Source of the DNA: a virus
Length of the DNA stretch: 39,269 nucleotides
Virus record (IMG/VR): IMGVR_UViG_3300045988_084518
Strand: one strand, 5' to 3'
This document shows, piece by piece, positions 1 to 39,269 of the stretch. The notes beneath the pieces were generated by a model. The model made no database searches. It was not told the origin of the DNA and saw only the letters and a program-made list of their open reading frames with translations. Each line of letters starts with the position of its first letter. Position 1 is the stretch's first letter. A program made the position numbers and the translations under genes.

Positions 1-25
1 GGTTCGAATCCCTTCGGGTCCACCA
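1..25 (+). tRNA. 3'-terminal 25 nt of a host tRNA- or tmRNA-like gene (5' part lies outside the window)
   Basis: GG-TTCGAAT-CCCTT reads as T-stem/T-loop, CGGGTCC as the acceptor 3' strand, A as discriminator, followed by an encoded CCA. Isotype cannot be determined from this fragment. Confidence 0.6.
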
Positions 26-32
26 TATCACA

Positions 33-55
33 AACCAGCAGAAATGCTGGTTTTT
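33..55 (+). terminator. Intrinsic terminator of the target RNA gene
   Basis: Hairpin CCAGCA-GAAA-TGCTGG (35-50) followed by TTTTT (51-55). Confidence 0.65.
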
Positions 56-150: not shown

Positions 151-182
151 TAAAATACCCCCTCCGTAACTGGAGGGGGTAT
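150..182 (-). terminator. Intrinsic terminator of the late operon
   Basis: 11-bp perfect stem ATACCCCCTCC / GGAGGGGGTAT (155-182) with a 6-nt loop. On the minus strand it is followed by ATTTTA. It lies 5 nt after the stop of the giant gene. Confidence 0.6.
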
Positions 183-186
183 CTCT

Positions 187-3100
187 TTACCACACCTTCT
201 CTGACACTTCGAGTGCCTCGTACAAAAGGTGCTTTTGCTTTGTGCTTGCGCCTGGAACGGCCTTATCGATAGCGGCCTTCTTTTTGCGGCTGGAGGACAG
301 TTGGATTGTCTTCCCATCGCCGTCTTTGTCGCCTGTGATCCCACGGGCTGCGAAGTATGCGGCGTAGTATTGGTCGTAGGTAACGCCCTGTGCGACATAC
401 TCGGCTGCCTTTTCTCCGACATCCTTGTTGTATGTCTTTAGTGCGTACTCTGCACCGAACGCCTTGCGGTTTGCTTCGCGCTTAACAACATCGCTGTCTG
501 CACTTCCGATGCTCTTTGCGGTTTCCTCGTAGGTGCCAACGGTCAACAGGGCTTTTCTATAAATCTCGTTACGCAGCTCCAGCAGGTCACGAGCCTCGCT
601 CATCTTCTCCTTGCGGGTCTTTTCGCCGCTGTTGTAGATTTCCTTGAGCTGCTTCGTGATTTCGGATGCAGCCTTGCTCTGCTTATACAGGTAGGAGTAG
701 GTTGCATCATCGGCTGCTGTCGCAAACTCGGTCTCCTTTACCTGCTTGGCTTCGTCCAGCGCATCATAGAAGTCGCTGCCGAGCCGGTTCTGCCGGACGC
801 TATCAACGACAAACGCCTTTACCACCGCAGGGACATCAGCTTTCTTGGAAAGCGCCGGAAGCAACCAGTCGCCAATAAAGCCGGAATACTGGTCGATCAG
901 GTAATTGACCTTCTTCGGAGAAAGCCCTTCGATGCCGTTCTTCCCGTGTCGTGTAATCTCACCGAGCCAAATGGAGAACGCATCGGTGCTTTCATCGTAC
1001 TGCAGATAATCCGGTTTTTCCTCCATGTAACTGGATACGATGTCGCCGCCGTACCAGTTCTTGTTGGTCCTCATCGCATCAAACCCTGCAAAGATGTTAT
1101 TGGTCCGCGGGTTGTTCGGGGCAAGCTGTTCGATAGCGAAAGACGGATAACCGGCAAACGCGCTGCTTGCAGGTTCCCCTTTCAGCCAGCGCCACATCCG
1201 ATTGGTGAACGCCGTAATAACGGAAGGTTCACGGCCCATCGGAACCTTGATAAACTTATTGTCGCCGATTTTGATGAGGATGTTGCTGTCCTTGATGTAG
1301 TTGGAAAGCTCCTTGTAGTCATCGTCCTCTTTCAGCCCGTCATAAAGCAGACCCATAATGATACCGGGTGCCACGCCGTTGATAAGCAAGCGTGAGATCA
1401 GTTGTCCAATCTCTTTCCAGCCGCGCCGGTCAATGACATTGCGAATGTTCTTGGAAAGGCCCTGCATACCGGGGTTGAAGAAAGGCACAAGGGAAGCGTT
1501 CAGCTTGCGGGCAGCGAAGCCGCCACGCCCGAAGTTCGTTGTGATGTCTGCTGCATTATAGAGCGCCTGCTGCACATCGCCTGTGTCCTCCATCGTGCTG
1601 ATAAATTCAGCAAGTCGGGGGTACTGCTCGACCGCTTCATTGGCAAAGGAGAGGATGTCGATTACTCTATTCAACCCACCAGCCACTTTATCGACTGCAC
1701 CGTTTTTGAAATGGTAGCGGTCGGAAAGCCCCGACTTTGGGTCATAATAGGTAGTTCCTTTTCCGCCCATCGCCTGATAGAGCTGCCAATACTTCCCGTT
1801 CGTTGCGATTTCCTTTACGGCCTTGCCGTAGTTCTTAATGAATGTGGCATTGCTGTAATGGGTAAAGTACAATGCAGACTGTGCATCACGGACAAAATTT
1901 CGCACGATGAATACAGGGTTCCATTGCGTGACCAGCTTCTTGAATGTGCTGTTGATGGAGCGCAATGCTTTCATTCCAAAGGAATTGGATTGCTCAATGG
2001 GTCTAAACCCATCGGCCATTGCTTCACTCATGTGCAGAGTAACCGGTTTGCCATCCACCCAAATGCGCAGCGTGTTCTTGAGGTTCTCTGCGGAATCCGC
2101 ATCAAGGTCAACGAGATCGCCTTCCTCTGTAACACTCTGAATGTATTCCGAGATATCACGGGTAGTATCCATTGCATCTTCATACAGCATATTGCCCAGA
2201 ATGTTCTTTTTGGCTGCGGAGAAGGTCTGCAAGGTCTGCCTGGCAATACTGTCGATCAGCGGCATGATATCCTGGTTGCCACCTTTTGCGGACTTGATGG
2301 TGCTGTTCACCGCAACGATGTTGGGGTTGGAGTAGCCGCCGGAGGTGCTGGGCATATCGCGGTAGGTGGGAACATAGTGCGGATACAGTTCCTTCATGTA
2401 CTGTGCCATATCGGCGCTCACGAGTCCTCCCTGCTTTCGCACCTCCATCAATCCGTCAAGGTAGGCATACACATCCTTTGCCCACTTTTCAAATTCAGGG
2501 TGTGCATCCAGCAGGTCAGCTGCGGCGGCACGGCTATCGTCTGCGGTCACGCTGCTGCCGAACACAGGCTTGTCGAATTGCTTTTCAGCCCATGCCTGGA
2601 ACCGCTTATATTGCTTGGCGGCGGCAATCTGTGCCTCGGTGTAGGCTTTTGTAAGGGCAGTATCCTTGCCTGCGGCTGTGGAAATGTTCTCATCTGTCAT
2701 TTCCGCAAAGCCGTTGACTTCCCTGTTCAGTTTCGCCCGAAGTTCTGCAAGCTGCCGCTGCGCCTTTTCGCGTACACTCATGCGGTCTACATTGTGCTCG
2801 TGCAGCAGGTAGGTGTAAAACTCATCGGTCAAGCCAGCCTTTTTCGCCGGTTCAAATACCTGCATGAGGTTCTTATCGCCGATCTTCTTGCCGTTAAGGT
2901 CATACTGCCCTGCGCCGCCAATGGAATACTGCGCCGCCGCAGATGCCTGCCCGACATTGTTCGCTGCATACATGATTCTGCTGTCGCCGACTTCATTCCC
3001 GAATCGCTCCAGCTCATCCTTGGTATTGACTAACTGGCGCTTAATGGTGCGCCAGTCTTTGGCGACTTGCGCCTTAAAGGTTTCCTTGTCCTTCTTCGGC

Positions 3101-6100
3101 ATTTCGGTCAGAACCTTGGCAACATCTTCCGTAGTGGTGGATTTCTGTTCCGCCGTCCTCAATCTGGCTTTGCTCTTTGCCCGATCCTCCCGCACCACTC
3201 GGTCAATGCGGTCCTGCGTCCTCCGCCGGTTGAATTCGTCCTTTGCTTCGGACAGCTTTTCGTTGTACTTGTCCCGCATCTGCCGATTGTTCGCACGGAG
3301 GTCGGCACGGTATTGCTTGGCAAGTGCATCATATTTCGCCATGAATTCTGCACGGGCCTTTGCTGCCTTCTCTCGCTCTTTAGCCGCTGCTATTTCGGTG
3401 ATGAGTTTCGTCTCTGCATCACGCCAGCGGTCATTCATCTTCGCTTCCGCAGTTGCCTGCTGGCGATAGTCAGCAAGCTGCTGACGGATGTTCTTCACCT
3501 CGGCTTGTGCAGCCTTCAGCTCATCGTTTGCTTTCTCGGTTGCTTCGGAAACAACCCTGTCGATGTCGGCCATGTACTGGGCATCTTCCATGAGGGAGTA
3601 GCGGATGTCTTTGCTTTCTGTCGGAGCGGTATTGTCAATGTTCTTAAATTGACTACTGCCAAACGCCACATACACGTTGGCATTATCATATTTGCCCTCT
3701 ACAATGTATCCGTCATAACCAAGCGTGTTTCGAGCCGCTTCAAGAACGGTTCCGGAACCTGCTCCGCCGTTTGCAATCTCCGCAAGGATTTCGCTATCAC
3801 TATCGCTATATTCCATAGCTGCCTTTACGGTAGCATCCAGCGCACGGTTATACCATGCTTTTGAAGGGTACCCAATACCGCCGGCAGGGTCGTAATTCAC
3901 AAGCACTTCATCACCGGTCGGGTCAACAGCCTGTAAAAGTTTTTTTACTTCTGCCCTTGTCAGCGTAATCTCGCTATCGCTCAACGGCTTTTTGATATCA
4001 AGATACCCCTCAAGGAGTTGTCCGCCGTCCTTTTGGTAGCCCTCTGCCACCGGCTTGTAGTCAGTGAAATAGAAACCTTGCCCCTCGGAGCTGCCATGCT
4101 GGGACATGAAATCGGGGGAAAACTCGGTAAACACCGCCGGACTGCCATGATATACAGGTTTCAACCTGCCCTCTGCGTCAACGACTTTGGAGCCGAAGAA
4201 ATACTCCCGCTGCCCCGCAGAAAGCTCTCTGCCGGTGCTGTCGGTCGTCGGCATTTCCATAAGGGAAAGCTTTTCCTGTGCATTTTTTGCACCGGTTTGC
4301 ATAGAATGGGTATTGACAACATCAGTGTCTTGTGGTACATTGATGGTGTCGAAGTCAACCGCTGTGTTCCGCTCGGGCAATTGGAGCCCGATTCGATGAA
4401 GCAGCCGGTTGGCTTCTTTTTTGCTGTAGCCAAGCAAATTTCCCCGGAGCATTTGATCTGCAAGAAAGTCCCTGCTGTTTTCTTTTCCATACAGACTTGC
4501 CACTCTTGTTACAATATCAAAGCCATTGCTCCGGCTCAAGTGAAGCGCCACAACAACAGGGTTTCCATCGGAATCCGCTGTAGAGGTAACGATGACTGCT
4601 GCATTGGGGACAGTGCCCGATTTCAACAGAAGCACCGGCTTGTCCAGCATTTCCGGAAGTTTCAGCAAAACATTATCGGAAAGGCTGTGCCCATGGGTGT
4701 CAATCGTAGACTTCCTTTGGGCCTTTTCTACTACAGCCTGCATCATTACAATAGGCTCTTTCTTCATGCCGGCTGCCTGCAGATATTCCGATGTGTCATT
4801 GAGATAAAACAAGTCTCCACGCTTAAACCGGCCGGCTTTGTAGTCGGCAAACTGTTCCGCAAACGGGCGGTTGTTTTTCTCCACCGCCTCCTTCATCAGC
4901 GAATAAGATATCTTCCCCGCTTCTTCCGCCTCCGTTCTCCCCTCCATCCCATCAAGCAAAGCCTTCTGCGATTCGGACAGCCTGTTGTAGGCTTCCTGCG
5001 CAGAGGGCTTTCCTTTTAGCTTTTTGAGGATACGGTTCAAAAAACCTTTAATGCCGGTGGCCGCTTCCGTATTTCTTGCGCCTATGTACTCCAGCATATC
5101 CCGGCTGCCCAAAAGATCACCGCTGATATCGGCAGCGACTTCCTCCGCAGCTGCATCCGGGTCAAGCTCAATTCCATTGCGCTCGTACAGTTCGGTTTTG
5201 GCATTCATCATGCCCTTTACCATATCGGCATAGTCGGGGTTCTCTACCAGCGTATCAATCATCCCGGAATACTTGCTATCAGCTACAAGGTCGTGAAACA
5301 TCTCATGCCCGAAAGTAACCATCAGCGGATCGCGGGAATTGATGTTGACATAAATGGTGCCATCCGGTGCGCGATAGCCATTGGTCAGTCGGTACTGCCC
5401 ATTGACCTGCACCGCGCCCTCAAACCACACGATAGTCTTGCCAAGGTATTTCGCTGCATTGTTCACCTCGGCAACAGCTTTCTTTTTACTGCCGAGAATT
5501 TCAGCTTTCTTATAGCCGATCTCGGTATTGCCGCGCACATCGGTATTGGTGATCTCCTTGATACGGCGCTTGCCGTCTACATCGGTAATGGTGTTTTGCT
5601 CAACGGAAAGCCAGCGTTCACGGCTTTCCTGCTCAAGTACATCGGCTTCCGCTTCCGCTTTGGCTTCTAGTTCGGCAGTCGCCCTTTCTGCCGCTTCGGT
5701 CATGCGCTCCGTGTACTCCGCTTCGGATACGACCTGTCTGCCGGTCTCGCCCAGCTTCTTGGTCGTTACCTCGATGGCAGCAACATCCGCAGCAGGGTTT
5801 CCTGTGTACTCGATCCCTGCCAGCTTCGCAAAGGACTCTCTCGCAGCAGGGTCGTTGTAAACCTTCTGCGCTACGCTTTGGTTTGCAGGAGCGCCTTGAA
5901 TTGCGCTGTTGTAGGCGACTTCACCTGTATTGGCAGGATTATCTACCATCTGCACGAAAGCTTGCCCTACGCTATCCTGCGCTGTTTTAACAGCAGATTC
6001 CTCCTGCTTACTGAAAACCTCGGCCATAACCGATTCGGGAGTGGGTTTTACCCCCAATGTTTCCGCAGCTTGGACGATGGCGTTGGCGTTGTTCATCATC

Positions 6101-7560
6101 GCCTTCAGCTCTCGAATGGAAAGCTGTGTGATATCCCCTTGGATTTTGGAGAGGCCGCTTTCCGCATCGAAGGACTGGTTTGCTTCGAAAAGTCTGCCGA
6201 GCATCTGGGGGGTGGGCTTCTTCTGCGCTTCCGCTGCATAGATGGCAGGGGCTGTGCCTTCACCCTTGCCCAAGCCTTCCTCTATCTGCTGCTGGACTGC
6301 AGCGGGGGATTTCTTAAGGGTCTTGCCCAAGCGGTTATAGTTGACGGCTCGTGTCGCTGCGTTTGCACCGCCCAAAACACCGCCTGCGAGAGCGCCGAGG
6401 AGCATATCGTACCAGATGTTGTCCATCTCGTCACTTTCGCCCGTGAGCGCTTTCTCGATGGCATAGTTAACGACATCTTCGGCACCTTCCTCCAAGCCTT
6501 CCTCAAGGGGGACGCGCAGCAATTCGCCGCCGGTAGAAGTAGCCAATGCATAAATACCGGGGGCTTCGGACATCAGCTTTTTGGTTGCGGCTTGCCCCAG
6601 CTTTGTGCCGCCGAGTCTTCCGAACACACCGCCGATCTGCTCTGTGGTGTATGTTGCGGCTCCTGCGCCAAGACCGAGTGCAAATGCGAGATCGCCGTTG
6701 CCGTACTTCTCGTATGCGTCTGCATACTTGTGGCCGAGGGAGGATACCGACATCAGCAAAAGACCTGCCGCTGGTGATTTGGTAATTGCGGTCACAGCCG
6801 CAGGGATCGCCATGCCTGCAAGCGTTCCGGCAGTATCAAGGCCGAGACCTTCGAGAGTGCCTACACTCGCCCTGTCCTTTTCCCGCTTCAGCTCGGCAAC
6901 AGTCTTGTAATCTGTTATCGGCGCAGCGTCTTTCTTGACCACCCCGGAAGCCTCAAGCGCCTCCTTCGGGGAAACGCCCTTGTCCATAAGGTTCTTTGCG
7001 CTGGTTGCGGCTTGCCGATATGCCGCTTCGCCATCGCCCAGGTAGTGAGAGAGAACCCCTGCGCCCTGCATGAACGACTGGCCAAAGTCCTGCAACGAGG
7101 CCAATGTAGCAGTACCGGCCTTAAACTTGTTTTTGCTTGGGTCGTAGTCCTCGGTCGCTTCGATGTTCTTCTGTGTCTTATACTTGGTTTCCGCATTGAC
7201 GGAGTCGGTGTAGATACGGCTTGCAATGCCGAGCTGCTCTGCTTCCTCCTGCTTCATCCCGGCACGATGGTATGCCCCGGCCTTGATAAGGGCATCGTCA
7301 CGCTGCTTCTTCAGCGTATCGACATTCTGTTTCATGGTTTCGCTCTGCTTACGAGAAGAAGCCCCGGCAGGCGCAGCCTGTGCAGGCTGCGTGCCGGGAG
7401 AAAGAACAGTATGCTTAATCTCCTGCGAGCGGTATGGGGCCATTAAGTTTTCCATGTCGCTTGCGGAAACCTTTTTCGGGGAGCTGCCATCGCTGCGTGC
7501 GGTATTGTTGGAGTTTCCGTACATTAGGCCCTGCATTTCTTCGGCTGTTACCTTCCCCAT
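187..7560 (-). CDS. Giant (2457 aa) multi-domain virion-type 'polyvalent' protein: hydrophobic Gly/Ala segments + HExxH metallopeptidase + MuF-C-like segment + ART-like segment + coiled coil + ~1000-aa C-terminal region
   Basis: The ORF is uninterrupted over 7.4 kb. Start placed at ATG 7560 (AAGGAGG 5 nt upstream); the track start at 7644 has no SD. TFGHEMFHD is encoded at about nt 5290-5316. VYHGS...GQGFYFT...GYDGYIVEG...VAFGSSQFKN is encoded at about nt 3630-4160. A K/R/E-rich coiled coil is encoded at about nt 3050-3560. Confidence 0.7.
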   Translation of the reverse strand: MGKVTAEEMQGLMYGNSNNTARSDGSSPKKVSASDMENLMAPYRSQEIKHTVLSPGTQPAQAAPAGASSRKQSETMKQNVDTLKKQRDDALIKAGAYHRAGMKQEEAEQLGIASRIYTDSVNAETKYKTQKNIEATEDYDPSKNKFKAGTATLASLQDFGQSFMQGAGVLSHYLGDGEAAYRQAATSAKNLMDKGVSPKEALEASGVVKKDAAPITDYKTVAELKREKDRASVGTLEGLGLDTAGTLAGMAIPAAVTAITKSPAAGLLLMSVSSLGHKYADAYEKYGNGDLAFALGLGAGAATYTTEQIGGVFGRLGGTKLGQAATKKLMSEAPGIYALATSTGGELLRVPLEEGLEEGAEDVVNYAIEKALTGESDEMDNIWYDMLLGALAGGVLGGANAATRAVNYNRLGKTLKKSPAAVQQQIEEGLGKGEGTAPAIYAAEAQKKPTPQMLGRLFEANQSFDAESGLSKIQGDITQLSIRELKAMMNNANAIVQAAETLGVKPTPESVMAEVFSKQEESAVKTAQDSVGQAFVQMVDNPANTGEVAYNSAIQGAPANQSVAQKVYNDPAARESFAKLAGIEYTGNPAADVAAIEVTTKKLGETGRQVVSEAEYTERMTEAAERATAELEAKAEAEADVLEQESRERWLSVEQNTITDVDGKRRIKEITNTDVRGNTEIGYKKAEILGSKKKAVAEVNNAAKYLGKTIVWFEGAVQVNGQYRLTNGYRAPDGTIYVNINSRDPLMVTFGHEMFHDLVADSKYSGMIDTLVENPDYADMVKGMMNAKTELYERNGIELDPDAAAEEVAADISGDLLGSRDMLEYIGARNTEAATGIKGFLNRILKKLKGKPSAQEAYNRLSESQKALLDGMEGRTEAEEAGKISYSLMKEAVEKNNRPFAEQFADYKAGRFKRGDLFYLNDTSEYLQAAGMKKEPIVMMQAVVEKAQRKSTIDTHGHSLSDNVLLKLPEMLDKPVLLLKSGTVPNAAVIVTSTADSDGNPVVVALHLSRSNGFDIVTRVASLYGKENSRDFLADQMLRGNLLGYSKKEANRLLHRIGLQLPERNTAVDFDTINVPQDTDVVNTHSMQTGAKNAQEKLSLMEMPTTDSTGRELSAGQREYFFGSKVVDAEGRLKPVYHGSPAVFTEFSPDFMSQHGSSEGQGFYFTDYKPVAEGYQKDGGQLLEGYLDIKKPLSDSEITLTRAEVKKLLQAVDPTGDEVLVNYDPAGGIGYPSKAWYNRALDATVKAAMEYSDSDSEILAEIANGGAGSGTVLEAARNTLGYDGYIVEGKYDNANVYVAFGSSQFKNIDNTAPTESKDIRYSLMEDAQYMADIDRVVSEATEKANDELKAAQAEVKNIRQQLADYRQQATAEAKMNDRWRDAETKLITEIAAAKEREKAAKARAEFMAKYDALAKQYRADLRANNRQMRDKYNEKLSEAKDEFNRRRTQDRIDRVVREDRAKSKARLRTAEQKSTTTEDVAKVLTEMPKKDKETFKAQVAKDWRTIKRQLVNTKDELERFGNEVGDSRIMYAANNVGQASAAAQYSIGGAGQYDLNGKKIGDKNLMQVFEPAKKAGLTDEFYTYLLHEHNVDRMSVREKAQRQLAELRAKLNREVNGFAEMTDENISTAAGKDTALTKAYTEAQIAAAKQYKRFQAWAEKQFDKPVFGSSVTADDSRAAAADLLDAHPEFEKWAKDVYAYLDGLMEVRKQGGLVSADMAQYMKELYPHYVPTYRDMPSTSGGYSNPNIVAVNSTIKSAKGGNQDIMPLIDSIARQTLQTFSAAKKNILGNMLYEDAMDTTRDISEYIQSVTEEGDLVDLDADSAENLKNTLRIWVDGKPVTLHMSEAMADGFRPIEQSNSFGMKALRSINSTFKKLVTQWNPVFIVRNFVRDAQSALYFTHYSNATFIKNYGKAVKEIATNGKYWQLYQAMGGKGTTYYDPKSGLSDRYHFKNGAVDKVAGGLNRVIDILSFANEAVEQYPRLAEFISTMEDTGDVQQALYNAADITTNFGRGGFAARKLNASLVPFFNPGMQGLSKNIRNVIDRRGWKEIGQLISRLLINGVAPGIIMGLLYDGLKEDDDYKELSNYIKDSNILIKIGDNKFIKVPMGREPSVITAFTNRMWRWLKGEPASSAFAGYPSFAIEQLAPNNPRTNNIFAGFDAMRTNKNWYGGDIVSSYMEEKPDYLQYDESTDAFSIWLGEITRHGKNGIEGLSPKKVNYLIDQYSGFIGDWLLPALSKKADVPAVVKAFVVDSVRQNRLGSDFYDALDEAKQVKETEFATAADDATYSYLYKQSKAASEITKQLKEIYNSGEKTRKEKMSEARDLLELRNEIYRKALLTVGTYEETAKSIGSADSDVVKREANRKAFGAEYALKTYNKDVGEKAAEYVAQGVTYDQYYAAYFAARGITGDKDGDGKTIQLSSSRKKKAAIDKAVPGASTKQKHLLYEALEVSEKVW

Positions 7561-7570
7561 TTTGCCCTCC

Positions 7571-8338
7571 TTATCCATAGCGGCGGTTCCAAATGTCGGC
7601 TGCCTGCTCACTCGTGTATCCGAGTTTTGCCATTGCCTGTGCAAATGCCCTAATGTCGCCCGTGTCGGTTACCTTTGTGCCGGTTATAGTCTTAACGCCG
7701 GGGGCTTTTGCAACCCCTGCGGAGTAACTGGCCTGTGCGTTCATCTTGCCGGTCTGCGGCTCACGGTTCGCATTCAGCATATCGAGGTAGGCACGGCTCA
7801 CAGCATCGGAGTAGTCGCTGTCACCTTCGGCAAGGCTGCGGTTGTAGCGGTTGTTCAGCTTGACATAGGATGTTTCTGCAAGGCCGCCGTTGATGCCCTC
7901 ACGGGCCAGCTGCCCGGGGAGGTTCTTTAGCGCCATCTCTTTGGCAATGTACGCCCTGCGTGCATTGTCCTCCCGCTGCTGGGCCGCCTGTTTCTGCTGG
8001 GCCTCATACATCTGCTGGTTGTATGCAAGGAGCTGGTCATAGGCAGCGGTCTGTGCATCGAGCTGGGCTTTCAGCGAAGCGAGGTAGCTGTTCCGTTCGC
8101 TTGCGTCTTGGTAGGAATACGGGGTCTCGGTCGTTCTTCCGAGAGACCCTGCTGCGGTTTCAAGGAGGTTGAGCCGAGAGCTGTCGTTTCGCCAGGAATT
8201 CGCCAGGTCTTTCCCAGACAATCCGAGTACGGTTCCTGCCCCGTGCGCCCGAATAGAATTCGATACACCTTCACCAACACGGGGGTTGGGCTTGCTTCCA
8301 CCGTCATTCACCATGTTCATGTTGCTTCTATTCGCCAT
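7571..8338 (-). CDS. Hypothetical late protein (255 aa), Gln/Ala-rich coiled-coil centre; possibly virion/ejection-associated
   Basis: ATG 8338 is preceded by AAGGAGGGG and lies 1 nt after the amidase stop. The gene sits between the lysis genes and the giant gene. No recognisable motif. Confidence 0.5.
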   Translation of the reverse strand: MANRSNMNMVNDGGSKPNPRVGEGVSNSIRAHGAGTVLGLSGKDLANSWRNDSSRLNLLETAAGSLGRTTETPYSYQDASERNSYLASLKAQLDAQTAAYDQLLAYNQQMYEAQQKQAAQQREDNARRAYIAKEMALKNLPGQLAREGINGGLAETSYVKLNNRYNRSLAEGDSDYSDAVSRAYLDMLNANREPQTGKMNAQASYSAGVAKAPGVKTITGTKVTDTGDIRAFAQAMAKLGYTSEQAADIWNRRYG

Positions 8339-8339
8339 A

Positions 8340-9047
8340 TTACCCCTCCTTCGCCGCCGTATCGTACTGTTCGATGGCGGCTAAAATTCTACCACGCAAT
8401 GCCTGTGCGGATGCGTGTTCGGTTCTGTACTTCTCTTTGATTTCTTCCAGCTCGGCCAGAAGTTTGTCACAGTCGGTCTGCGGCTTTTCTTCCTCTTTGT
8501 AGGTCACGCCGAACCAGTCGCATACGCCCTTGCAAAGTGCCTCGGCAATGCGCTTTTTGTTTTGCACAATCCAAATGGCATCCTGTCCGTTGTCATGGAA
8601 TGCGATTTCGGGATAGATGGACAGCATGGGAGTTCTGCCGATCTCGTAAAACTCGTCCTTCTGATAGACCCCTCGGTGGGTGTTCCGGGGGTAAATTTCC
8701 ATCAGTCTGCGGTAGACCATCTGACAGGCCCGGTCGCTGATGCCTCCGGCTCTGCCGTAGCGCAGGACAGTCGGTCCCTGTGCAGTCCCTTCTTTCAAGG
8801 TGGCCGTGCTTGCATTGGTATGGATGGGCATATGGAGGTTGGATTTCCAAGCGATGCTTTCGGCTACTCGCTCCTGCATCGTCTTGTTGGGTGATGCGAC
8901 CATCACATCAAACCCGCAGCGGGTGAGAGCCTCGGCGCAATAAGCGCCGATCTCTACACACACATCATGCTCGTACACGCCGGGGAAGCCGTAGTACGGA
9001 GCATGGGGAGCCGGTCTGCGTTCGGGGGAAAGATACACTTTAGGCAT
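8340..9047 (-). CDS. Endolysin, N-acetylmuramoyl-L-alanine amidase (Amidase_3/MurNAc-LAA type)
   Basis: N-terminus YLSPERRPAP...YEHDVCVEIG...LHMPIHTNAS fits the Amidase_3 pattern. GGAGGTGG RBS. It overlaps the holin stop, the usual holin-lysin order. Confidence 0.8.
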   Translation of the reverse strand: MPKVYLSPERRPAPHAPYYGFPGVYEHDVCVEIGAYCAEALTRCGFDVMVASPNKTMQERVAESIAWKSNLHMPIHTNASTATLKEGTAQGPTVLRYGRAGGISDRACQMVYRRLMEIYPRNTHRGVYQKDEFYEIGRTPMLSIYPEIAFHDNGQDAIWIVQNKKRIAEALCKGVCDWFGVTYKEEEKPQTDCDKLLAELEEIKEKYRTEHASAQALRGRILAAIEQYDTAAKEG

Positions 9048-9366
9048 CTTTCACCACCTCCTCAAGAGGGAATTCCTCCTCTTTGGCCTTTTTCACCATG
9101 CCGGTCGTAGCAGCATCATAAGTGCCACCGGCAGCCAGCGCCACGATAACCGCATTGAGCAGGCACAGGATTACGCCCTGCACCGTCAGCTCGGTGCCGG
9201 TAAACGCTTCTGCGCCGACGAGGATAAGTACGGAAACGATATAGGCCAAGAGGTTAGTGTTGATGTTTCGCAGAGGGGTCTGCTTCAAAAACTGGGTGAT
9301 GATGGTGACCATCATGACTGCACCTGCGTAAGTACCGAGGGATGCCCAAGTTACAAAATCATTCAT
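9040..9366 (-). CDS. Holin (108 aa, three predicted TM helices, charged C-terminus)
   Basis: Hydrophobic stretches AGAVMMVTIITQFL, LLAYIVSVLILVGAEAF and VILCLLNAVIVALAAGG, with a KKAKEEEFPLEE tail. Lies immediately upstream of the amidase. Confidence 0.7.
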   Translation of the reverse strand: MNDFVTWASLGTYAGAVMMVTIITQFLKQTPLRNINTNLLAYIVSVLILVGAEAFTGTELTVQGVILCLLNAVIVALAAGGTYDAATTGMVKKAKEEEFPLEEVVKDA

Positions 9367-9916: not shown

Positions 9917-11209
9917 TTAGTTCACCCCCATAATGTTAAGAGCATTGAGCACATCTCGTGTATAGTTCGTGCCGTCAAGAGATTTCCAACCACCAGTAGC
10001 TGTGTCGTAATAATAAGCATTTACCGCTTCGGCAATACCAGCATCATTTCCTATAAACGCATTATTTATGGCAATGTTTATCTGTGCGCTTTTATCATTC
10101 ACAATATCGATACCCGGTCTTGCATCGGAATAATACAAAGCAAGTGTATTCTTGGGCAAATGGAAGTTAAGAGTTAGCTTATATACATTGCTTGAATTAC
10201 CATCACACCCAACAAAGATAAAGCCATCGTCAACAGCACACATCGGCATTGTATAAAAATAGTTTGTAAAACTTCCGATTTGGGATCTGACATCAAACAC
10301 ACTTGTATCAGTTTTTGTATCAAAATCGTAAGAATGTAAATAGCCATCGGATAGAAGATAATACATCTTTTTGTCAAACACAACGCCAGAAGTCGCACCT
10401 ATTGTTTTTCCAATACTGACCTGTGTTCTCATTCTTTCAATCGGGTCAACAATCGAAAACCAATTGTTTGCTGTTGAACCAGATACATTGCTTAAAGAAG
10501 TAGAACCGCCAAAGATATACATCTTATTATTTATGGCACCTTGTGCAGCAAACACCTGTCCGGTGAAACCGTTTATTTTCCCAACGTTTACCACGGTGTT
10601 TGCAACAGTATCTGTTTTGTACAAATCTCCATCGTCGATTGGCGATGAACAATCAGTGCGTACAGAGTATACGTCTGTTCCGATTACTATGGAAACGAAC
10701 GAACCTCTTCCAACAGTTCCGAGATTCTTTACAAGAGTTTCTGTATCAAGGTCATAGCATAAAGCAAAACTTTGATTGTACCACGTTCCAGACACGCCAC
10801 CATAAGAATATAACTTGTTACCAACAATACACATTCCACATTGTGGGTACACGCTGGTAAATGCCGATGGGTTAGTAACCTGTTTAGAATTTAAGTTTAT
10901 CTTAAACGCTTTTCCTGATGGATAATTGTCGGTGGTTGTGCTACTTGAACCACCAGAGAGATACAGCGTATTCGTGCTTTTCCTCCACGCAAGAAGCGCA
11001 CCAACATTTCCAGTAGACGGAACAGAAATATTGAGGTTTTCAAACTCAAAACCGTATGTTAGGTCTTTTGCGCTGCATATAACCCTATCCGGCTTCTTCG
11101 CCAGTGGAACCCACAGCTTACTTGTATCTGTCGGAGGGGTAGAGCCGAAGTCTATGTTCAAATCAGCTCCACCGCCACCCAACGTAATAGGATTTCCTAA
11201 AATACTCAT
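9917..11209 (-). CDS. Kelch-type beta-propeller fibre / receptor-binding candidate, paralog 2 (430 aa)
   Basis: Start moved to ATG 11209 (MSILGNPITLGGGG, parallel to the paralog's MSVIYGNPIITNGGG). Recurrent hhhhGG blades (LYLSGG, LYSYGG, MYIFGG). N- and C-termini are shared with 11234-12544. Confidence 0.65.
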   Translation of the reverse strand: MSILGNPITLGGGGADLNIDFGSTPPTDTSKLWVPLAKKPDRVICSAKDLTYGFEFENLNISVPSTGNVGALLAWRKSTNTLYLSGGSSSTTTDNYPSGKAFKINLNSKQVTNPSAFTSVYPQCGMCIVGNKLYSYGGVSGTWYNQSFALCYDLDTETLVKNLGTVGRGSFVSIVIGTDVYSVRTDCSSPIDDGDLYKTDTVANTVVNVGKINGFTGQVFAAQGAINNKMYIFGGSTSLSNVSGSTANNWFSIVDPIERMRTQVSIGKTIGATSGVVFDKKMYYLLSDGYLHSYDFDTKTDTSVFDVRSQIGSFTNYFYTMPMCAVDDGFIFVGCDGNSSNVYKLTLNFHLPKNTLALYYSDARPGIDIVNDKSAQINIAINNAFIGNDAGIAEAVNAYYYDTATGGWKSLDGTNYTRDVLNALNIMGVN

Positions 11210-11233
11210 ATTCACCCTTTCCGGGGTGAGTAT

Positions 11234-12544
11234 TTAGTTCACCCCTAATATATTTAGTGCGTTCTGCATATCCGCTACATAGCTTTCACCAGTAAGCGAT
11301 TTCCACTTAAGGTCTTTGCTGTCGTAGAGATATGCGTTTGTTAATTGTGCTATGTTGTTGTTGTCCCCAAGGTAGGCGTTGATCACCTTAACCTTAAAGT
11401 CAGTATCTTTGGATTTAAGTGCTGTCCACAAGCCATCGTAACCATAGTCCTCTTGCAGGAACAGGTGGTTGCTGGTGAGGGGAGTGCTGACCGTAAATCG
11501 GTCAATATCAAGGCTATCGCTAAAACCAATTGAACCAGTTAGAAAAATATTATACCCATATAGCCACGTAATACAATATTTTCCCGATTTTGGTCTAACA
11601 GCATCAAGAGTAATGACTTGCTTACTCACAGTATCATAGCGATAGATGGTATTAAACACTGTTCCAGAAACGTTTCTACCACCGAAGATGTAGATATACT
11701 GACCAAAAGCAACTGCATTTGTGTCATACATCACTTGAGGAAGCGTTCCATCGTGAGTCCATGAATTCGAGGTTATATCATAACGATAAATAGCATTACT
11801 CTTTGTGTTACTATAACTGCCCCAATAACCACCAACAACATAGATTGCATTGCCAATACTGCACACGCCAAAGTTAATCATTCCTTGTGGCATATCAGCA
11901 AACTTGCCTGTTTTGTTTTTGGATACGTCAAAATACCTTACATCAGGCCAACAATTACCAGAATTGGCGTATCCCATGGAATAAATTATTGTCCCGTGTC
12001 CGATGATAGTTTGACCTGAATTGGCACTGTTATCCCCAAAACTTACCGATTGATTATAGTGGTAAGCCCTACTTGCTATATCAAAATAACATAGAGAAAA
12101 CACTGAAGTGCCCTGCCCACGAGCGTGCCCCCAGTAGTAAATTTTGTTGTCAATAACCGCCGCACCCCTTGCAACCAAGGCGTTTATACTATAATTGTTC
12201 GTATCCCCTCCATCACATACAATAGGACAGGTAATCGTTTCCCAAGCATTAGTTGCAGTGTCGTAGATTTGCATTTTCGAGTCCGGCGCAGGCACATAGA
12301 TTTTACCACTGTGGTATACAGACGAAGGGCTTGTGATAGCAGGAGTTGAAGGTCTCGTTTGAACTGCGGTTGTCATATATTCGCTACCAATTTGCAAAAT
12401 CGGACTACACTCAACAGCATCAGGCTTTGTTGCCAATGGCACCCAGAGTTTGGTGGTATCAGCGGGAGGATTTGCACCATAGTCTATGTTGAGTTTTACC
12501 CCCCCCCCGTTGGTAATAATTGGGTTACCGTAAATTACGCTCAT
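11234..12544 (-). CDS. Kelch-type beta-propeller fibre / receptor-binding candidate, paralog 1 (436 aa)
   Basis: Blade motifs KIYYWGH, IYVVGGY and IYIFGGR. ATGA overlap with the collagen-like fibre gene. C-terminus NAYLYDSKDLKWKSLTGESYVADMQNALNILGVN matches the paralog. Confidence 0.65.
   Translation of the reverse strand: MSVIYGNPIITNGGGVKLNIDYGANPPADTTKLWVPLATKPDAVECSPILQIGSEYMTTAVQTRPSTPAITSPSSVYHSGKIYVPAPDSKMQIYDTATNAWETITCPIVCDGGDTNNYSINALVARGAAVIDNKIYYWGHARGQGTSVFSLCYFDIASRAYHYNQSVSFGDNSANSGQTIIGHGTIIYSMGYANSGNCWPDVRYFDVSKNKTGKFADMPQGMINFGVCSIGNAIYVVGGYWGSYSNTKSNAIYRYDITSNSWTHDGTLPQVMYDTNAVAFGQYIYIFGGRNVSGTVFNTIYRYDTVSKQVITLDAVRPKSGKYCITWLYGYNIFLTGSIGFSDSLDIDRFTVSTPLTSNHLFLQEDYGYDGLWTALKSKDTDFKVKVINAYLGDNNNIAQLTNAYLYDSKDLKWKSLTGESYVADMQNALNILGVN
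12499..12508 (-). repeat. G10 homopolymer (C10 on the + strand) in codons 13-16 of Kelch paralog 1
   Basis: Read directly: ...ACC AAC GGG GGG GGG GTA AAA... It is the longest homopolymer I found in the window. The paralog encodes the same GGGG with the interrupted codons GGT GGC GGT GGA. Confidence 0.9.
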
Positions 12545-14295
12545 GCTGTTACCTCCGTTATCGTAACCTGTACGGTCATGTCTGCGTTCGGCTTATCGCC
12601 AATGCATTTGGCCGTAATCGTTCCGTTGTTGTTCTCCATCCATATTGCAGATGTGCCGCTATCAATAAGCACGCCGATAGCGGTTGCATCCATTTGGATA
12701 TCTACCTTGCTGTTGGCGGTGATGCCGCTGATGGTAACCGTCTGCGAAAGGTTGCTCCAAGATGCAGTCGGCAAAGTGACCGAAGCTCGCTTGACCTTGC
12801 AAGCATTGATTGCCGTCTGCTGGGCGGTGGAAACAGGCTTGTTCATGTCCGATGTGTCATCGACACTCCCAAGACCCACCTGTGCCTTTGTAACTCCGTG
12901 AGGGTTGGATTTATCGGTCACATGGGTATACGGAGCCTGTTTTACATTATCCACATTGCCGAGGTCAACCTGCGCCTTGGTCACGCCGTGAGGGTTCGAC
13001 TTGTCCGCAATATGGGAAGGAACCGCAGCAAGGGACGAATTGAATGCCGTCTCCGTACCGCTGTACCCGCTTTCTACTGCGGTTTGGTATGCGGACTTGC
13101 CGTCTGCACCGGCAACACCAGCGGGGCCTTGCGGGCCTTCGGGGCCTACTACGCCCTGTGGCCCCTGAATGCCCTGCGGGCCTTGTGCGCCGTCTCTCCC
13201 TGCCGGGCCTGTCGCTCCTTCCTTCCCCTGCGGTCCCTGAATACCCTGCGGGCCTTGCGGACCGATGGGGCCTTGCAATGCGCCGACACTCACCCAATCG
13301 TTTGCGGTCTCGCTCCAGATGTAGCACTCGCCGTTCTCACGGACAAAGTACATCTTGGTATCTCCGTTCGGGATTGCATTCTTGAGAGCCGCTACGGTCG
13401 GATAGCTGTCCTCGATATACAGGCTGGTTCCGTCTTTCCCTGCGGGGCCTACGGGGCCTTGCGGCCCAACAGGCCCTTCAGGGCCCTGCACGCCCCTCGG
13501 CCCTTCCGCACCAGTAGCGCCGGGGTCGCCCTTCTCACCATTTGGGCCTTGGATGCCTTGTACGCCCTGCAAGCCCTGCGGGCCTCTTGCGCCCTGTGCG
13601 CCCTGTGCGCCCTGTATGCCTTGCGGACCCTGCGGGCCTCTCACGCTGACAGACTGCGGAGCAATTGCGGTGTCTTGGATGGTAAAGGACATGATGCCGT
13701 TTGCGTCCACGCTCGGTACGATGACAGGGCCAGTTGCGCCGATGTCGCCCTTGTCGCCTTTCTCGCCCTGTACGCCCTGCGGGCCCTGGTCGCCCTTGTC
13801 ACCCTTCAAACTGGTGATGATGGTCTGCGTGCCATCGTCAGATACAACACCGTTTGTGAATTTCATGCGGCTGCGCTGCGGAGCGATGGTGCCGTCAGGC
13901 TTAACGATGACATGGCCGGAGGAGCCGGTCGCTTCCCATACCACGCCATCTTCACTCGTCTCAAGCACCTTGTCACCGTTGAGCCGGATGTACTTCACAT
14001 TGCCGGTCAGGATCCGCTTTCCCAGCTCCTCCTGTACGGTCGATGCTGCGCCGCTGATGTCCTCTGCGCCCATGCTGGCGGCAGCGGTCAGGGCGTTGAG
14101 CGCATCCACAAGGCTGTTGTACGCAGGGATGACCACCTCACGCACAACAGCTTCTACCGAGTATTGCATCTCGCTGGCAGAAAGGTTCGGGGTGGTATCC
14201 TGACCGATTACACCGACTCTTTCCCCAGCGCTATCAGTAAATACCGCATCCTTGGTATACTCGTTCCCATCGGATGCTTTGATTTTCTCAAACAT
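12541..14295 (-). CDS. Collagen-like repeat tail fibre protein (584 aa)
   Basis: Three long Gly-X-Y runs (for example GPQGPQGIQGAQGAQGARGPQGLQGVQGIQGPNGEKGDPGATG). Duplicated DKSNPHGVTKAQV(D/G)LG(N/S)VD fibre-repeat motif near the C-terminus. Confidence 0.85.
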   Translation of the reverse strand: MFEKIKASDGNEYTKDAVFTDSAGERVGVIGQDTTPNLSASEMQYSVEAVVREVVIPAYNSLVDALNALTAAASMGAEDISGAASTVQEELGKRILTGNVKYIRLNGDKVLETSEDGVVWEATGSSGHVIVKPDGTIAPQRSRMKFTNGVVSDDGTQTIITSLKGDKGDQGPQGVQGEKGDKGDIGATGPVIVPSVDANGIMSFTIQDTAIAPQSVSVRGPQGPQGIQGAQGAQGARGPQGLQGVQGIQGPNGEKGDPGATGAEGPRGVQGPEGPVGPQGPVGPAGKDGTSLYIEDSYPTVAALKNAIPNGDTKMYFVRENGECYIWSETANDWVSVGALQGPIGPQGPQGIQGPQGKEGATGPAGRDGAQGPQGIQGPQGVVGPEGPQGPAGVAGADGKSAYQTAVESGYSGTETAFNSSLAAVPSHIADKSNPHGVTKAQVDLGNVDNVKQAPYTHVTDKSNPHGVTKAQVGLGSVDDTSDMNKPVSTAQQTAINACKVKRASVTLPTASWSNLSQTVTISGITANSKVDIQMDATAIGVLIDSGTSAIWMENNNGTITAKCIGDKPNADMTVQVTITEVTA

Positions 14296-22789: not shown

Positions 22790-23623
22790 TCACCACACAA
22801 CCGTGATACGCTTATCGCCGTGCTTATTGCACCCTAACAGCAATGTCTGTGGCTGCTCTGCATCGCTCTCTGCGCTGGGGAGTAGCATCTTGCGTGCTGC
22901 GTAACCGCCGTAATGCTGCCATGCTGTGCAACTTACCACTACCAATTGCTTTGTAGTCACCTTGTTGTTTTTGCTGTCCACCACGATCTTTTTGGGCTTG
23001 GATACCGTCCCCTTGTGGGTATGGCCTACTATCAATGCATCAATGCCCTCGATCGTGTTTGCAAACCGCTCGTTGCGATTGACTGTTGCGCCTGTATATA
23101 TTCCGCCGCCGGAGCCGTGTGTTACGGCCATCGTGTAGGTCACCAGCGATGAGTCCCTGTTGGTGCGTGTCCCAAGCTGTAGCTTGACAAATGCCACATC
23201 CTCTGCATATCTGTCCTCCAAGTCCAGCTTGCACATGATGTCGCCCATGATATCCTGGTCGGTGTCCTTAACCGTCCTTGCCTCGTGGTTGCCGGATACT
23301 GCGCACAGGATTTTGTTTTTGATCGGTGTCAGCATCTCCACCATCAGCTTTTTTTGCTCCCTCGGTCGCAGATAGTCCTCAAACGGGCTGCCTGCGGCAT
23401 GGCGGGTGTTGTTATTGATTAAATCCCCGCCGAGGATCACATAGGCATCCTCTGCTTCCACACGGCGGCAGAAGTTTTCCCACCCAACTTTGTCATGCAG
23501 GATGCTCCCAAGATGCACATCCGATACGGGATATATCTTTGCGGCCTTTCCCGGCAGCCTGTGGCATATCAAATCCAATGGTTTTACCTCCTTCTGTGCA
23601 ATATGCTGTATTTTCCGTTTCAT
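22790..23623 (-). CDS. Calcineurin-like metallophosphoesterase
   Basis: Ordered motifs DVHLG, GGDLIN, GNHE and GHTH. ATG 23623 lacks an SD; the alternative TTG 23578 has AAGGAGGT 7 nt upstream. Confidence 0.8.
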   Translation of the reverse strand: MKRKIQHIAQKEVKPLDLICHRLPGKAAKIYPVSDVHLGSILHDKVGWENFCRRVEAEDAYVILGGDLINNNTRHAAGSPFEDYLRPREQKKLMVEMLTPIKNKILCAVSGNHEARTVKDTDQDIMGDIMCKLDLEDRYAEDVAFVKLQLGTRTNRDSSLVTYTMAVTHGSGGGIYTGATVNRNERFANTIEGIDALIVGHTHKGTVSKPKKIVVDSKNNKVTTKQLVVVSCTAWQHYGGYAARKMLLPSAESDAEQPQTLLLGCNKHGDKRITVVW

Positions 23624-25077: not shown

Positions 25078-25152
25078 TGGAGCACCCGGTAGGATTTGAA
25101 CCCACAGCCAGCTGATTACAAATCAGCCGCTCTACCATTGAGCTACGGGAGC
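25078..25152 (-). tRNA. Phage-encoded tRNA-Thr (anticodon UGU), 75 nt with encoded CCA
   Basis: Manual cloverleaf: GCTCCCG-TA-GCTC-AATGGTA-GAGC-G-GCTGA-TTTGTAA-TCAGC-TGGCT-GTGGG-TTCAAAT-CCTAC-CGGGTGC-T-CCA. There is a U3:U70 mismatch in the acceptor stem. Confidence 0.85.
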
Positions 25153-28528: not shown

Positions 28529-28869
28529 TAGCGCATCTCCTCGATTGTTATTTCCGTCCTCGGATTTTTTCTGTCGTACTCTCCCCGCAGCCGCAGCTCG
28601 ACATGGTCAAAGCTGTCGTCTGCGATAACGCCTCGGTCGGTCAGGCCATCCATCAGCATCTTGCCGTTATAGTTATCTGGGTCATGCCGATGGCGTGTGG
28701 GAAAGTAGTAGGTGATGGTCACTATGGCCTTGTCCACCGGCTTTTGCTTTTTGCAGTATGCTCGCATCAGGCCAATCCATCTCTGCTTTTCAGCACGGTA
28801 CTCCCAGCCATTCATCCGTCCTGCGTACTTGTTCAGCGATGGTGGGATTTCTGGGATTGTGATTTTCAT
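28528..28869 (-). CDS. rusA: RusA-family Holliday junction resolvase
   Basis: PPSLNKY..., DPDNYNGKMLMDGLTDRGVIADD and a length of 113 aa are typical of RusA. Confidence 0.85.
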   Translation of the reverse strand: MKITIPEIPPSLNKYAGRMNGWEYRAEKQRWIGLMRAYCKKQKPVDKAIVTITYYFPTRHRHDPDNYNGKMLMDGLTDRGVIADDSFDHVELRLRGEYDRKNPRTEITIEEMR

Positions 28870-32716: not shown

Positions 32717-32986
32717 TTAATACGGTCGTATATCCTGTTCTGCTTCTTCGAAATACTTGTCTCCATCAAGGTACGCGTCAATCTTCTTGATCTCTCCCGT
32801 CTCGTACTCATCGAGGAGGTCACTGATGTGGTCGTCAATGCACTGGTCACAGGATACGATTTCATCGGTCAAACGGCGCACATAGATGTCTCCGTGAATT
32901 TCCGCTTTGCAGACAGGGCAGTACCGATGCACCCAGTCCATGTAGTCGTCCGGCCAGATGGCATCCGGCACATATATCGGGGTCAT
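32717..32986 (-). CDS. Small zinc-finger hypothetical protein (89 aa)
   Basis: Contains CPVC...CDQC. ATGA coupling to the upstream gene. Confidence 0.5.
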   Translation of the reverse strand: MTPIYVPDAIWPDDYMDWVHRYCPVCKAEIHGDIYVRRLTDEIVSCDQCIDDHISDLLDEYETGEIKKIDAYLDGDKYFEEAEQDIRPY

Positions 32987-39214: not shown

Positions 39215-39269
39215 GGTTCGAATCCCTTCGGGTCCACCATATCACAAACCAGCAGAAATGCTGGTTTTT
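39215..39269 (+). repeat. attR: copy 2 of the 55-bp direct repeat (orphan tRNA/tmRNA 3' fragment + terminator)
   Basis: Identical to 1-55. It is preceded by phage sequence TTTTTTTAT, which cannot complete a T-stem. Confidence 0.9.

Follow-up and report, generated by a model that had tools for sequence, protein, structure and literature searches.

A cysteine-free polyvalent protein predicted to be packaged and ejected by a short-tailed phage

IMG/VR virus record IMGVR_UViG_3300045988_084518 is a stretch of viral DNA of 39,269 nucleotides (the window, by which we mean this whole stretch), and near its left end one gene on the minus strand encodes a giant protein of 2457 amino acids. We propose, with a probability of roughly 0.7, that this protein is a late-made, virion-packaged ejection and effector polyvalent protein of a podovirus; its packaging, ejection, enzymatic activities, targets and cleavage are all predictions from sequence. 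Its architecture would comprise an N-terminal chassis (a Gly/Ala-rich domain and an M48-like zincin), a variable magazine of cassettes, a helical spacer and a C-terminal module of ~700-800 residues containing LPD38, a type of module that characterises the giant internal proteins of podoviruses. Polyvalent proteins, as described by Iyer et al. (2017, PMC5512222), join two to fifteen unrelated effector-type domains and are delivered with the DNA into the recipient. The giant protein is a further member of this known class: zincin, MuF_C, ART-PolyVal and LPD38 domains were found in one late polypeptide, and the gene lies on the same strand as, and contiguous with, the genes from terminase to lysis, which bears out a preliminary description of the window as encoding a polyvalent-type giant protein. 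The parts of the gene are listed here by position in the window.

187..7560 (-), coding sequence of the 2457-residue polyvalent protein; stop codon at 187-189; 100% match to P0001 and P0311
6859..7560 (-), residues 1-234, N-terminal region with no assigned function; two alleles among close homologs
6346..6858 (-), residues 235-405, Gly/Ala-rich hydrophobic domain; recurs in ~70 clusters of giant proteins, in each case close to the N-terminus
5494..6345 (-), residues 406-689, spacer with no domain detected by Pfam on segments
4906..5493 (-), residues 690-885, zincin-like metallopeptidase domain (HExxH...ExxAD), from alignment, AlphaFold2 (AF2) and BFVD matches
5293..5307 (-), residues 752-756, HEMFH, predicted zinc-binding and catalytic motif; third ligand E807 at 5140-5142
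4270..4905 (-), residues 886-1097, cassette 1, MuF_C / PBECR predicted RNase; Pfam match at residues 951-1050
3601..4269 (-), residues 1098-1320, cassette 2, predicted ART-PolyVal ADP-ribosyltransferase (ART); Pfam match at residues 1128-1314
3061..3600 (-), residues 1321-1500, charged long alpha-helical or coiled-coil spacer; 42% charged
511..2583 (-), residues 1660-2350, conserved C-terminal module, also present in giant virion proteins of podoviruses
1333-1410 (-), residues 2051-2076, hydrophobic helix within the C-terminal module
838-1326 (-), residues 2079-2241, LPD38; Pfam match of 122 bits, E = 4e-35

The C-terminal module is shared with virion proteins of podoviruses

The preliminary description recognised no motif in ~1000 residues of the giant protein, but this part contains LPD38 within a conserved module of ~700 residues, identified by the Pfam match (E = 4e-35) and by homology to proteins of phage Page and of Shiga toxin (Stx) phages. 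The module aligned with gp20 of Page over 630 residues (22% identity; E = 1e-17) and with a 2793-residue protein of Stx phages that bears LPD5, LPD1, MuF_C and LPD38 and is likewise encoded by the last late gene; jackhmmer joined all three proteins with six metagenomic giants. By tblastn the module was found in 359 phage records (Stx, Ralstonia GP4, Bcep22-like Burkholderia phages with 'DarB-like antirestriction' proteins, Vibrio and Achromobacter), and a search started from the Page module returned 71 homologs, mostly of 1000-1250 residues. Searches of PHROGs gave 'unknown function' families only. One homolog of 728 residues lies in a metagenomic podovirus-type contig with SU10-type capsid and adaptor genes, and the module can therefore exist almost alone.

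Two proteins with this type of module have been observed by mass spectrometry of virions. In CsCl-purified JC1 virions, gp69 (4515 residues) gave 51 unique peptides and the second-highest score, and gp47 of phi24B was abundant by mass spectrometry and absent from the cryo-electron microscopy map; the authors of the latter work propose an encapsidated ejection protein (bioRxiv 10.64898/2026.04.10.717836). We conclude from these homologies that the C-terminal module is probably the conserved core for packaging, ejection or both, to which different lineages appended different cargo.

The N-terminal parts have a partly separate distribution. Of 71 giants that share the Gly-rich and/or zincin part, only six have a C-terminal module of the LPD38 type. 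Another module, common to 45 of the 71 (2000-4100 residues; P0124, P0136 and P0137 among them), forms the C-terminus of these; that it might be a diverged LPD38 module was considered and rejected (hhalign probability 0.7%), and it would seem to be a second chassis for delivery of the same cargo system.

Residues 690-885 define an unnamed family of predicted gluzincins

An exhaustive search with residues 1-900 against 1.84 billion representative proteins yielded 119 proteins, 67 of which contained the region 690-880 (local phmmer with residues 680-890). Across an alignment of 34 sequences at 19-30% identity, only H752, E753, H756 and E807 were invariant. Among the distant homologs E807, which lies 51 residues downstream of HExxH, was kept in 60/60, A810 in 58/60 and D811 in 37/60, and the resulting pattern HExxH...ExxAD is what we take to be the gluzincin signature of the M48 and M56 families. 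In the confident AF2 model (predicted local distance difference test, pLDDT, 93.4; predicted template modelling score, pTM, 0.86), a small beta-sheet is accompanied by the helix with HExxH and, further along, by one bearing E807. The viral library BFVD contains 13 pieces of further phage polyvalent proteins with the same fold, annotated solely by their other domains (ART, MuF_C, 'nuclease', LPD3, LPD38, LT_GEWL), and a UniProt entry annotated 'PolyVal ADP-ribosyltransferase' is 99% identical across the zincin segment.

With E values up to 5 allowed, no Pfam peptidase model, MPTase-PolyVal (PF18818) included, was found for the HExxH segment (the best was M48, E = 0.18), and MPTase-PolyVal matched none of ten distant homologs either; distant homologs gave sub-threshold or borderline matches to M48, M78 and DUF6782 (P0207, 20.6 bits against a cut-off of 20.3). 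Foldseek with the zincin model returned nothing significant from the PDB (best E = 0.17; best peptidase fold match ZMPSTE24, of M48, E = 0.33). A profile search against PDB sequences gave ColG at a non-significant E of 0.038, and phmmer and profile searches against the same sequences found nothing significant for the zincin, ART, MuF_C or C-terminal segments. In BLASTP, the HExxH region aligned with that of the Stx protein over the motif itself only. Like the M48/M56 gluzincins (Ste24/ZMPSTE24, HtpX, BlaR1), the domain has HExxH and a downstream Glu in an ExxAD context; unlike them it is soluble, lies inside a giant phage protein and has no membrane-spanning helices around it, and the similarity is statistically not significant for this protein's zincin. 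The zinc metallopeptidase proposed in the preliminary description thus holds in that HExxH is invariant among distant homologs, but matches neither MPTase-PolyVal nor any other peptidase model. On these alignments residues 690-885 are a conserved zincin-type domain of an unnamed gluzincin family, set apart from Pfam MPTase-PolyVal; the domain is a predicted peptidase that would work like the MPTase of polyvalent proteins.

The two cassettes are a predicted RNase and a predicted ADP-ribosyltransferase

The Pfam cut-offs for MuF_C, ART-PolyVal and LPD38 lie at 27-31 bits. MuF_C (PF18819) matched with 67.6 bits against a cut-off of 27.6 (E = 1.1e-18; model positions 3-101 of 103) and ART-PolyVal (PF18760) with 84.5 bits against 31.2 (E = 1.6e-23; model positions 1-139 of 140), so that two of the three families for which profile searches had been suggested passed their thresholds and the third, MPTase-PolyVal, did not. 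The segment ending in HRIGLQLPERN (at residue 1055), suspected to be MuF-C-like, is confirmed as such by the Pfam match and is predicted to be a BECR-fold RNase. MuF-C is classed by Iyer et al. (2017) as a predicted RNase of that fold, neither a peptidase nor a head domain; the phi24B preprint, contrary to this, calls it a peptidoglycan-degrading 'metallopeptidase domain'. In the Stx protein the HExxH motifs are at residues 1284 and 1551, separate from MuF_C. A MuF head-morphogenesis protein (Phage_Mu_F / SPP1 gp7) was considered as an identity for the giant protein and ruled out: the portal-binding N-terminal MuF domain, Phage_Mu_F, gave no match at E up to 5, whether the protein was searched entire or by segments.

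The active site of ART-PolyVal is H-Y-D, on strands 1, 2 and 5 (Iyer et al., 2017). Residue conservation was scored over 25 alignable ART-PolyVal domains, and H1138 (16/19 aligned domains), Y1164 (16/22) and D1283 (21/23) were conserved within the motifs Y-H1138-G, G-x-G-F-Y1164-F-T and G-Y-D1283-G (VYHGS at residue 1136, GQGFYFT at 1160 and GYDGYIVEG at 1281). E1288, the proposed Glu of an H-Y-E pattern in the preliminary description, was kept in 6/16 only, and a second ART copy in the 2627-residue variants retains GYDG and lacks a Glu of the E1288 type. From this conservation the predicted triad is H-Y-D (H1138, Y1164, D1283): the family assignment and the His and Tyr of the earlier proposal stand, and its acid is replaced by D1283. 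All motifs quoted in that description were found at their places in the translated protein.

Cassettes vary between recurrent junction motifs

At least nine architectures, from 2248 to 3017 residues, were found among the 120 closest clusters. MuF_C may be lost or replaced, an extra ART copy gained, or a 360-residue ART-like cassette, LPD3 or an uncharacterised cassette of ~530 residues present. Junction motifs bound all such changes, apart from a ~240-residue insertion in the helical spacer. Every cassette starts with [Y/H/F/L]-S-[L/V/I]-[M/I], usually followed by D or E. The giant protein has three such junctions, all read from the sequence.

4894..4905 (-), junction motif 1, Y886-S-L-M889, start of the MuF_C cassette
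4258..4269 (-), junction motif 2, L1098-S-L-M1101, start of the ART cassette
3589..3600 (-), junction motif 3, Y1321-S-L-M1324, start of the helical spacer and C-terminal part

The tripeptide SLM occurs exactly three times in the 2457 residues (887, 1099 and 1322), each time at a cassette start (shuffle P = 0.004). At the three junctions the DNA is not repeated (22-27 of 57 nucleotides identical) and the codons differ, which rules out a DNA-repeat explanation and implies that the constraint acts on the peptide. Among distant zincin homologs, 16/56 (~30%) have a like motif 73-112 residues past the invariant Glu, preceded by K/R and a low-complexity linker (GGVKFSIKK, DIRYSIKT, GKGRYSIKY); in the peak 20-residue bin there are 0.17 motifs per protein, compared with ~0.03 as background (~5x), and motif and zincin co-occur (odds ratio 2.8; P = 0.037).

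An in-cis zinc peptidase has been proposed to process polyvalent proteins (Iyer et al., 2017), and the junction motif may be a processing site for such a peptidase, which would give that autoproteolysis a concrete form. In the fuller version of this idea, [Y/H/F]-S-[L/V/I]-[M/I]-(D/E) would be the recognition site of the zincin, which lies directly ahead of junction 1, and the protein a self-dismantling effector magazine whose cassettes are freed, once ejection is over, from a chassis bound to the virion or membrane; we put this forward tentatively, as the less probable of two accounts. If it were true, cassettes could be added, duplicated and exchanged between phages since each carries its own cut site. 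The same order of zincin, linker and (K/R)[Y/F]S[I/L] also occurs in the second chassis type, with its unrelated C-terminal module (P0124), and a large class of polyvalent proteins may then share this junction grammar as a general code for processing.

The other account, to which we would give an even chance, is that the motif is not a cleavage site: it would be an element of folding or flexibility of the linker or first strand, or a trace of recombination, and the zincin would act on host or cell-wall targets. This agrees with the AF2 model, in which the last helix runs on through the motif at low confidence with no hint of docking, and with two findings outside the close family, where the motif does not flank ART domains and where simple regular-expression counts in distant giants are not enriched over shuffles. 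It agrees too with precedent, as N4 vRNAP and ArdC-type polyvalent proteins are transferred uncleaved despite their peptidase domain (Iyer et al., 2017). Against a mere linker or recombination trace stand the constraint on the peptide in unrepeated DNA, the restriction of SLM to cassette borders, and the position and association of the motif relative to the zincin in distant homologs.

Hydrophobic, helical and cysteine-free parts

Pfam searches of ten overlapping segments (E up to 5) found nothing for residues 1-690 and 1320-2050, and the Gly/Ala-rich domain (residues 235-405), with GLGLDTAGTL at residue 238, LGLGAGAATY at 295 and MLLGALAGGV at 386, has no Pfam model. At the extreme N-terminus (residues 1-90) two unrelated leaders occur among close homologs (MGKVTAEEMQ and MDRKTLEQNY), recombined independently of the cassette region. 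The ~170-residue K/R/E coiled coil noted in the preliminary description is real as a stretch of sequence: residues 1314-1487 are the longest Pro/Gly-free run in the protein (174 residues), and the highly charged helical spacer of ~175 residues would span ~26 nm, some variants having the ~240-residue insertion inside it.

No cysteine is present in the 2457 residues of the giant protein, compared with 1.29% in 13 neighbouring phage proteins, from terminase to the open reading frame (ORF) just upstream (P ~1.6e-14). The 120 closest clusters have 4 Cys in 302,110 residues, all in the 3017-residue variant P0008 and there only in its extra ~530-residue cassette; the 71 Page-like homologs have 0 in 70,849 residues, and Page gp20 and the Stx protein also have none. 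Such avoidance fits unfolded passage through the portal and tail channel, or action outside the cytoplasm, either of which we infer.

The gene closes the late operon

In the ORF list the frame is 187..7644 (-), or 2485 residues counted from an upstream TTG. The ATG at 7560, which gives 2457 residues, lies 5 nt past AAGGAGG and 10 nt past the stop codon of the upstream 255-residue ORF, and yields the start MGKV common to many homologs; the JGI start call is 6 codons further upstream (2463 residues). The late genes follow one another on one strand as holin (9040-9366), amidase (8340-9047), the 255-residue ORF (7571-8338) and the giant gene, with gaps of 1-10 nt, and a consensus terminator scan found none between them, so that the giant gene looks part of the late transcript. 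The preliminary description, which had placed a 2457-residue ORF at 187-7560 as the last late gene after the lysis cassette, agrees with both the ORF list and this gene order. Directly after the stop codon, at 157-180, is a hairpin with a 9-bp GC-rich stem followed by ATTTT, which the consensus scan missed because its T-run is just 4 T.

7566..7572 (-), strong ribosome-binding site AAGGAGG, 5 nt ahead of the ATG, seen directly in the sequence
151..180 (-), intrinsic-terminator-like hairpin (ACCCCCTCC / GGAGGGGGT) followed by ATTTTA, end of the late operon, seen directly in the sequence
7571..8338 (-), Cys-free 255-residue ORF directly upstream of the giant gene; a 251-residue ORF at the same place in relatives
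1..55 (+), 55-bp repeat of the contig ends (1-55 = 39215-39269); bases 1-25 are a tRNA 3' end with CCA, then a hairpin

The ends of the window are identical over 55 bp, and the whole stretch is thus a circularly assembled complete phage genome of ~39.2 kb and not an excised prophage. The tRNA 3' end in bases 1-25, which sits between the integrase gene (38031-39179) and the giant gene, is likely the attP core. Integrated relatives, which encode a 2627-residue homolog and lie on contigs of up to 125 kb, have no phage gene after the giant gene: host genes (LysR, XdhC, FeoB, CTP synthase) begin 236 nt beyond it. The earlier placement of the gene at a prophage edge therefore fails for the window, a circular genome, and is correct after integration, as the relatives indicate.

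The encoding phage resembles Page

The portal protein matches P22_portal (E = 4e-20), and the capsid protein shares 44-45% identity with its counterparts in Page, Pony and Pascal, podophages of Bacillus megaterium. Page is the closest cultured relative of the whole virion module, with counterparts of the major capsid protein (44-45%), the portal (38%), an 81-residue head protein (gp7-like), the 634-residue virion protein (gp15-like, 29%) and the C-terminal part of the giant protein (22%). Between capsid and lysis there are only genes for 285- and 634-residue proteins, a collagen-like fibre and two Kelch-repeat proteins, and neither a gene nor a Pfam match was found in the phage genome for a tail tube, sheath, tape measure or tail chaperone. 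The suggestion of a phage without a tape measure is upheld by these absences together with the P22-like portal and Pagevirus-like virion module, and the phage is most likely temperate, short-tailed and Pagevirus-like. The sole named hint of a host comes from an 8-kb contig assigned by binning to Angelakisella (Oscillospiraceae, Clostridia), which matches the C-terminal 897 residues at 95% identity. The host genes that flank an integrated relative had no named relatives. The host is probably a gut member of the Clostridia (Oscillospiraceae).

At E <= 1e-5, 745 proteins in the database match. The best 120 clusters, from human-gut-type metagenomes, are 83-100% identical, and some are named 'Large polyvalent protein associated domain 38'. 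The combination and position had been called unusual, which is contradicted by hundreds of homologs at 84-100% identity in gut metagenomes and by the Stx phages, which share the location at the end of the late operon.

A proposed packaged and ejected effector, weighed against other explanations

In the mechanism that we favour, the giant protein would be made late and taken into the head via its C-terminal module, and at infection it would be threaded through the portal and tail, unfolded at least in part. It would help the DNA to cross the envelope and deliver the RNase and ART into the cell, where these would act early in infection on host RNA and proteins, so that defence is blunted or the host taken over; more speculatively, the in-cis peptidase would cut at the junctions and release the cassettes. 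The hydrophobic elements (residues 235-405 and 2051-2076) and the ~26-nm spacer are compatible with crossing a Gram-positive envelope.

Several observations weigh against this mechanism. Presence in the virion rests on homologs at 20-25% identity, and on the C-terminal module only. The AF2 model of this module, mostly helical with a pLDDT of 67, matches nothing in the PDB (Foldseek best E = 0.43), which leaves a conduit role structurally unsupported. The hydrophobic helix is strong in this subfamily only (Kyte-Doolittle value, KD19, > 1.5 in 7/33), and the Gly-rich segments are just moderately hydrophobic (KD19 ~1.35). The predicted peptidase matches no curated peptidase model, its best match to a solved structure being insignificant, and the junction motif is neither enriched in simple counts among distant giants nor found beside ART domains outside this family. 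Finally, a position after the lysis genes would also suit an accessory gene.

The alternative that survives best, and which we regard as improbable, is that the protein is a structural ejection or conduit protein in place of a tape measure, its enzyme-like modules being inactive passengers or spacers. The retention of the C-terminal module alongside core virion genes between this phage and Page would be expected of such a protein, as would the long helical spacer; Page gp20 and the 1000-1250-residue homologs have no recognisable effector domain besides LPD38, and the authors of the phi24B work propose a conduit role for gp47. However, both the ART (H, Y, D) and the zincin (HExxH, E) have kept their catalytic residues, which argues against inactive passengers, and the cassettes are often swapped, duplicated and replaced among near-identical phages, a pattern of conflict effectors and not of spacers. 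Nor did profile searches and Foldseek against the PDB reveal any sequence or fold similarity to the solved ejection proteins of T7 (gp14-16) and P22.

Lower still do we rate an accessory (moron-like) toxin or lysogenic-conversion gene whose product is not packaged and is released at lysis, or secreted, against competing bacteria. The absence of a signal peptide-like N-terminus, of a separate promoter and of an immunity gene downstream (where there is a terminator and then attP or host genes), together with the 1-10-nt gaps to the late genes, speaks against it, as do the physical presence in virions of homologs with the same C-terminal module and the conservation of that module with head and tail genes in distant podoviruses. 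In its favour are the place of the gene after the lysis cassette and last before the att site with its own terminator, the toxin-like modular domains (ART, BECR RNase) in a hypervariable cassette region, and the lack of cysteine, which is shared by many secreted proteins of Gram-positive bacteria. It is very unlikely that a long-tailed phage has been mistaken for a podovirus and that the protein is a tape measure or of tail-fibre type: its size, Gly-rich hydrophobic segments and long helical stretch resemble those of tape measures, but no tape-measure, tail-tube, sheath or chaperone genes or Pfam matches were found, the portal is P22-like, capsid and portal are 38-45% identical to those of Page, and the gene lies after the lysis genes and not between tail chaperones and baseplate.

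Relation to known systems

The packaged and ejected polyvalent protein that we propose resembles the proteins of Iyer et al. (2017) in its peptidase, ART-PolyVal, MuF-C/PBECR and LPD38 domains, its linkage to virion genes and its mosaic architecture, and differs from them in that its zincin has no MPTase-PolyVal match; keyword searches of the article returned no Gly-rich N-terminal domain, cassette-start motif or cysteine avoidance. The 2793-2811-residue protein of the Stx podoviruses (phi24B gp47 / 933W-type) is alike in MuF_C and the LPD38 module, in being free of cysteine, and as the product of the last gene of the late region, adjoining the att site. It differs in that the identity is 22-27% over MuF_C and the C-terminal module only, the host is Gram-negative, and there is no ART domain, Gly-rich N-terminal domain or YSLM-type junction. 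The giants of Bcep22 (gp75), JC1 (gp69) and Ralstonia GP4 likewise combine an LPD38-type module with N-terminal polyvalent cargo in a podovirus, and JC1 gp69 is virion-associated by mass spectrometry; they are about twice as large (~4500 residues), and their cargo is a lytic transglycosylase, DarB-like methylase and helicase, and LPD3, not ART and RNase.

Page gp20 (1679 residues) is, as here, a cysteine-free giant encoded at the end of the structural genes. In it and in the 1000-1250-residue Bacillales LPD38 proteins no zincin, ART, MuF_C or Gly-rich domain was detected, and proteins of this type look like a cargo-less minimal form. T4 Alt, T7 gp14-16, P22 gp7/16/20 and N4 vRNAP share the proposed mode, packaged in the head and ejected for host modification or as a conduit, with no sequence or fold similarity detected to the giant protein; Alt is an R-S-E ART (Iyer et al., 2017), the ART here H-Y-D.

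Polyvalent proteins are predicted to be a major route for anti-defence and takeover enzymes of phages, but hardly any has been studied. The present family is common in human-gut metagenomes, and one backbone with at least nine natural cassette combinations is a ready comparative system. What makes it interesting is the junction motif, together with the avoidance of cysteine and a zincin family without a name. Three predictions emerge from the analysis. The release of effectors by autoproteolysis, long proposed, would have defined cut sites and a defined catalytic Glu (E753); the LPD38 module would be the conserved part for packaging or ejection, common to Stx-converting phages; and near-total avoidance of cysteine would mark proteins that have to pass the portal channel. 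Should all three fail, the protein is just another annotated member of the polyvalent class.

Other features of the phage genome

The 255-residue ORF that precedes the giant gene matches neither Pfam nor PHROG families and has no similarity to Page gp19; it may encode a partner of the giant, a second internal virion protein or a chaperone. Further upstream, two adjacent Kelch-repeat proteins (432 and 436 residues; 9917-12544, minus strand) have similar N- and C-terminal ends (MxxIxGNPIT...; ...NALNIxGVN) and lie in a GC dip of 0.40-0.45 against 0.52-0.58 around, which suggests recently acquired receptor-binding proteins. Their position is occupied in relatives (L004, an integrated one, at 5097-7891) by a radical-SAM enzyme, and a small protein two genes upstream of it has a faint 'tSAM_targ_Cxxx_rpt' match; the pair would be a cassette resembling those for ribosomally synthesised and post-translationally modified peptides within the phage tail-fibre region. 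The adjoining 584-residue protein (12541-14295, minus strand), with four collagen triple-helix repeat stretches (Pfam E = 3e-23), is probably a tail fibre.

Also on the minus strand, a tRNA-Thr (anticodon TGT) is encoded at 25078-25152 between the early and late gene blocks, and genes at 28866-29681, 22790-23623 and 32983-33891 encode an N6/N4 DNA methylase, a calcineurin-like phosphoesterase and a DUF7666 protein, respectively, the phosphoesterase gene adjoining the terminase small-subunit region.

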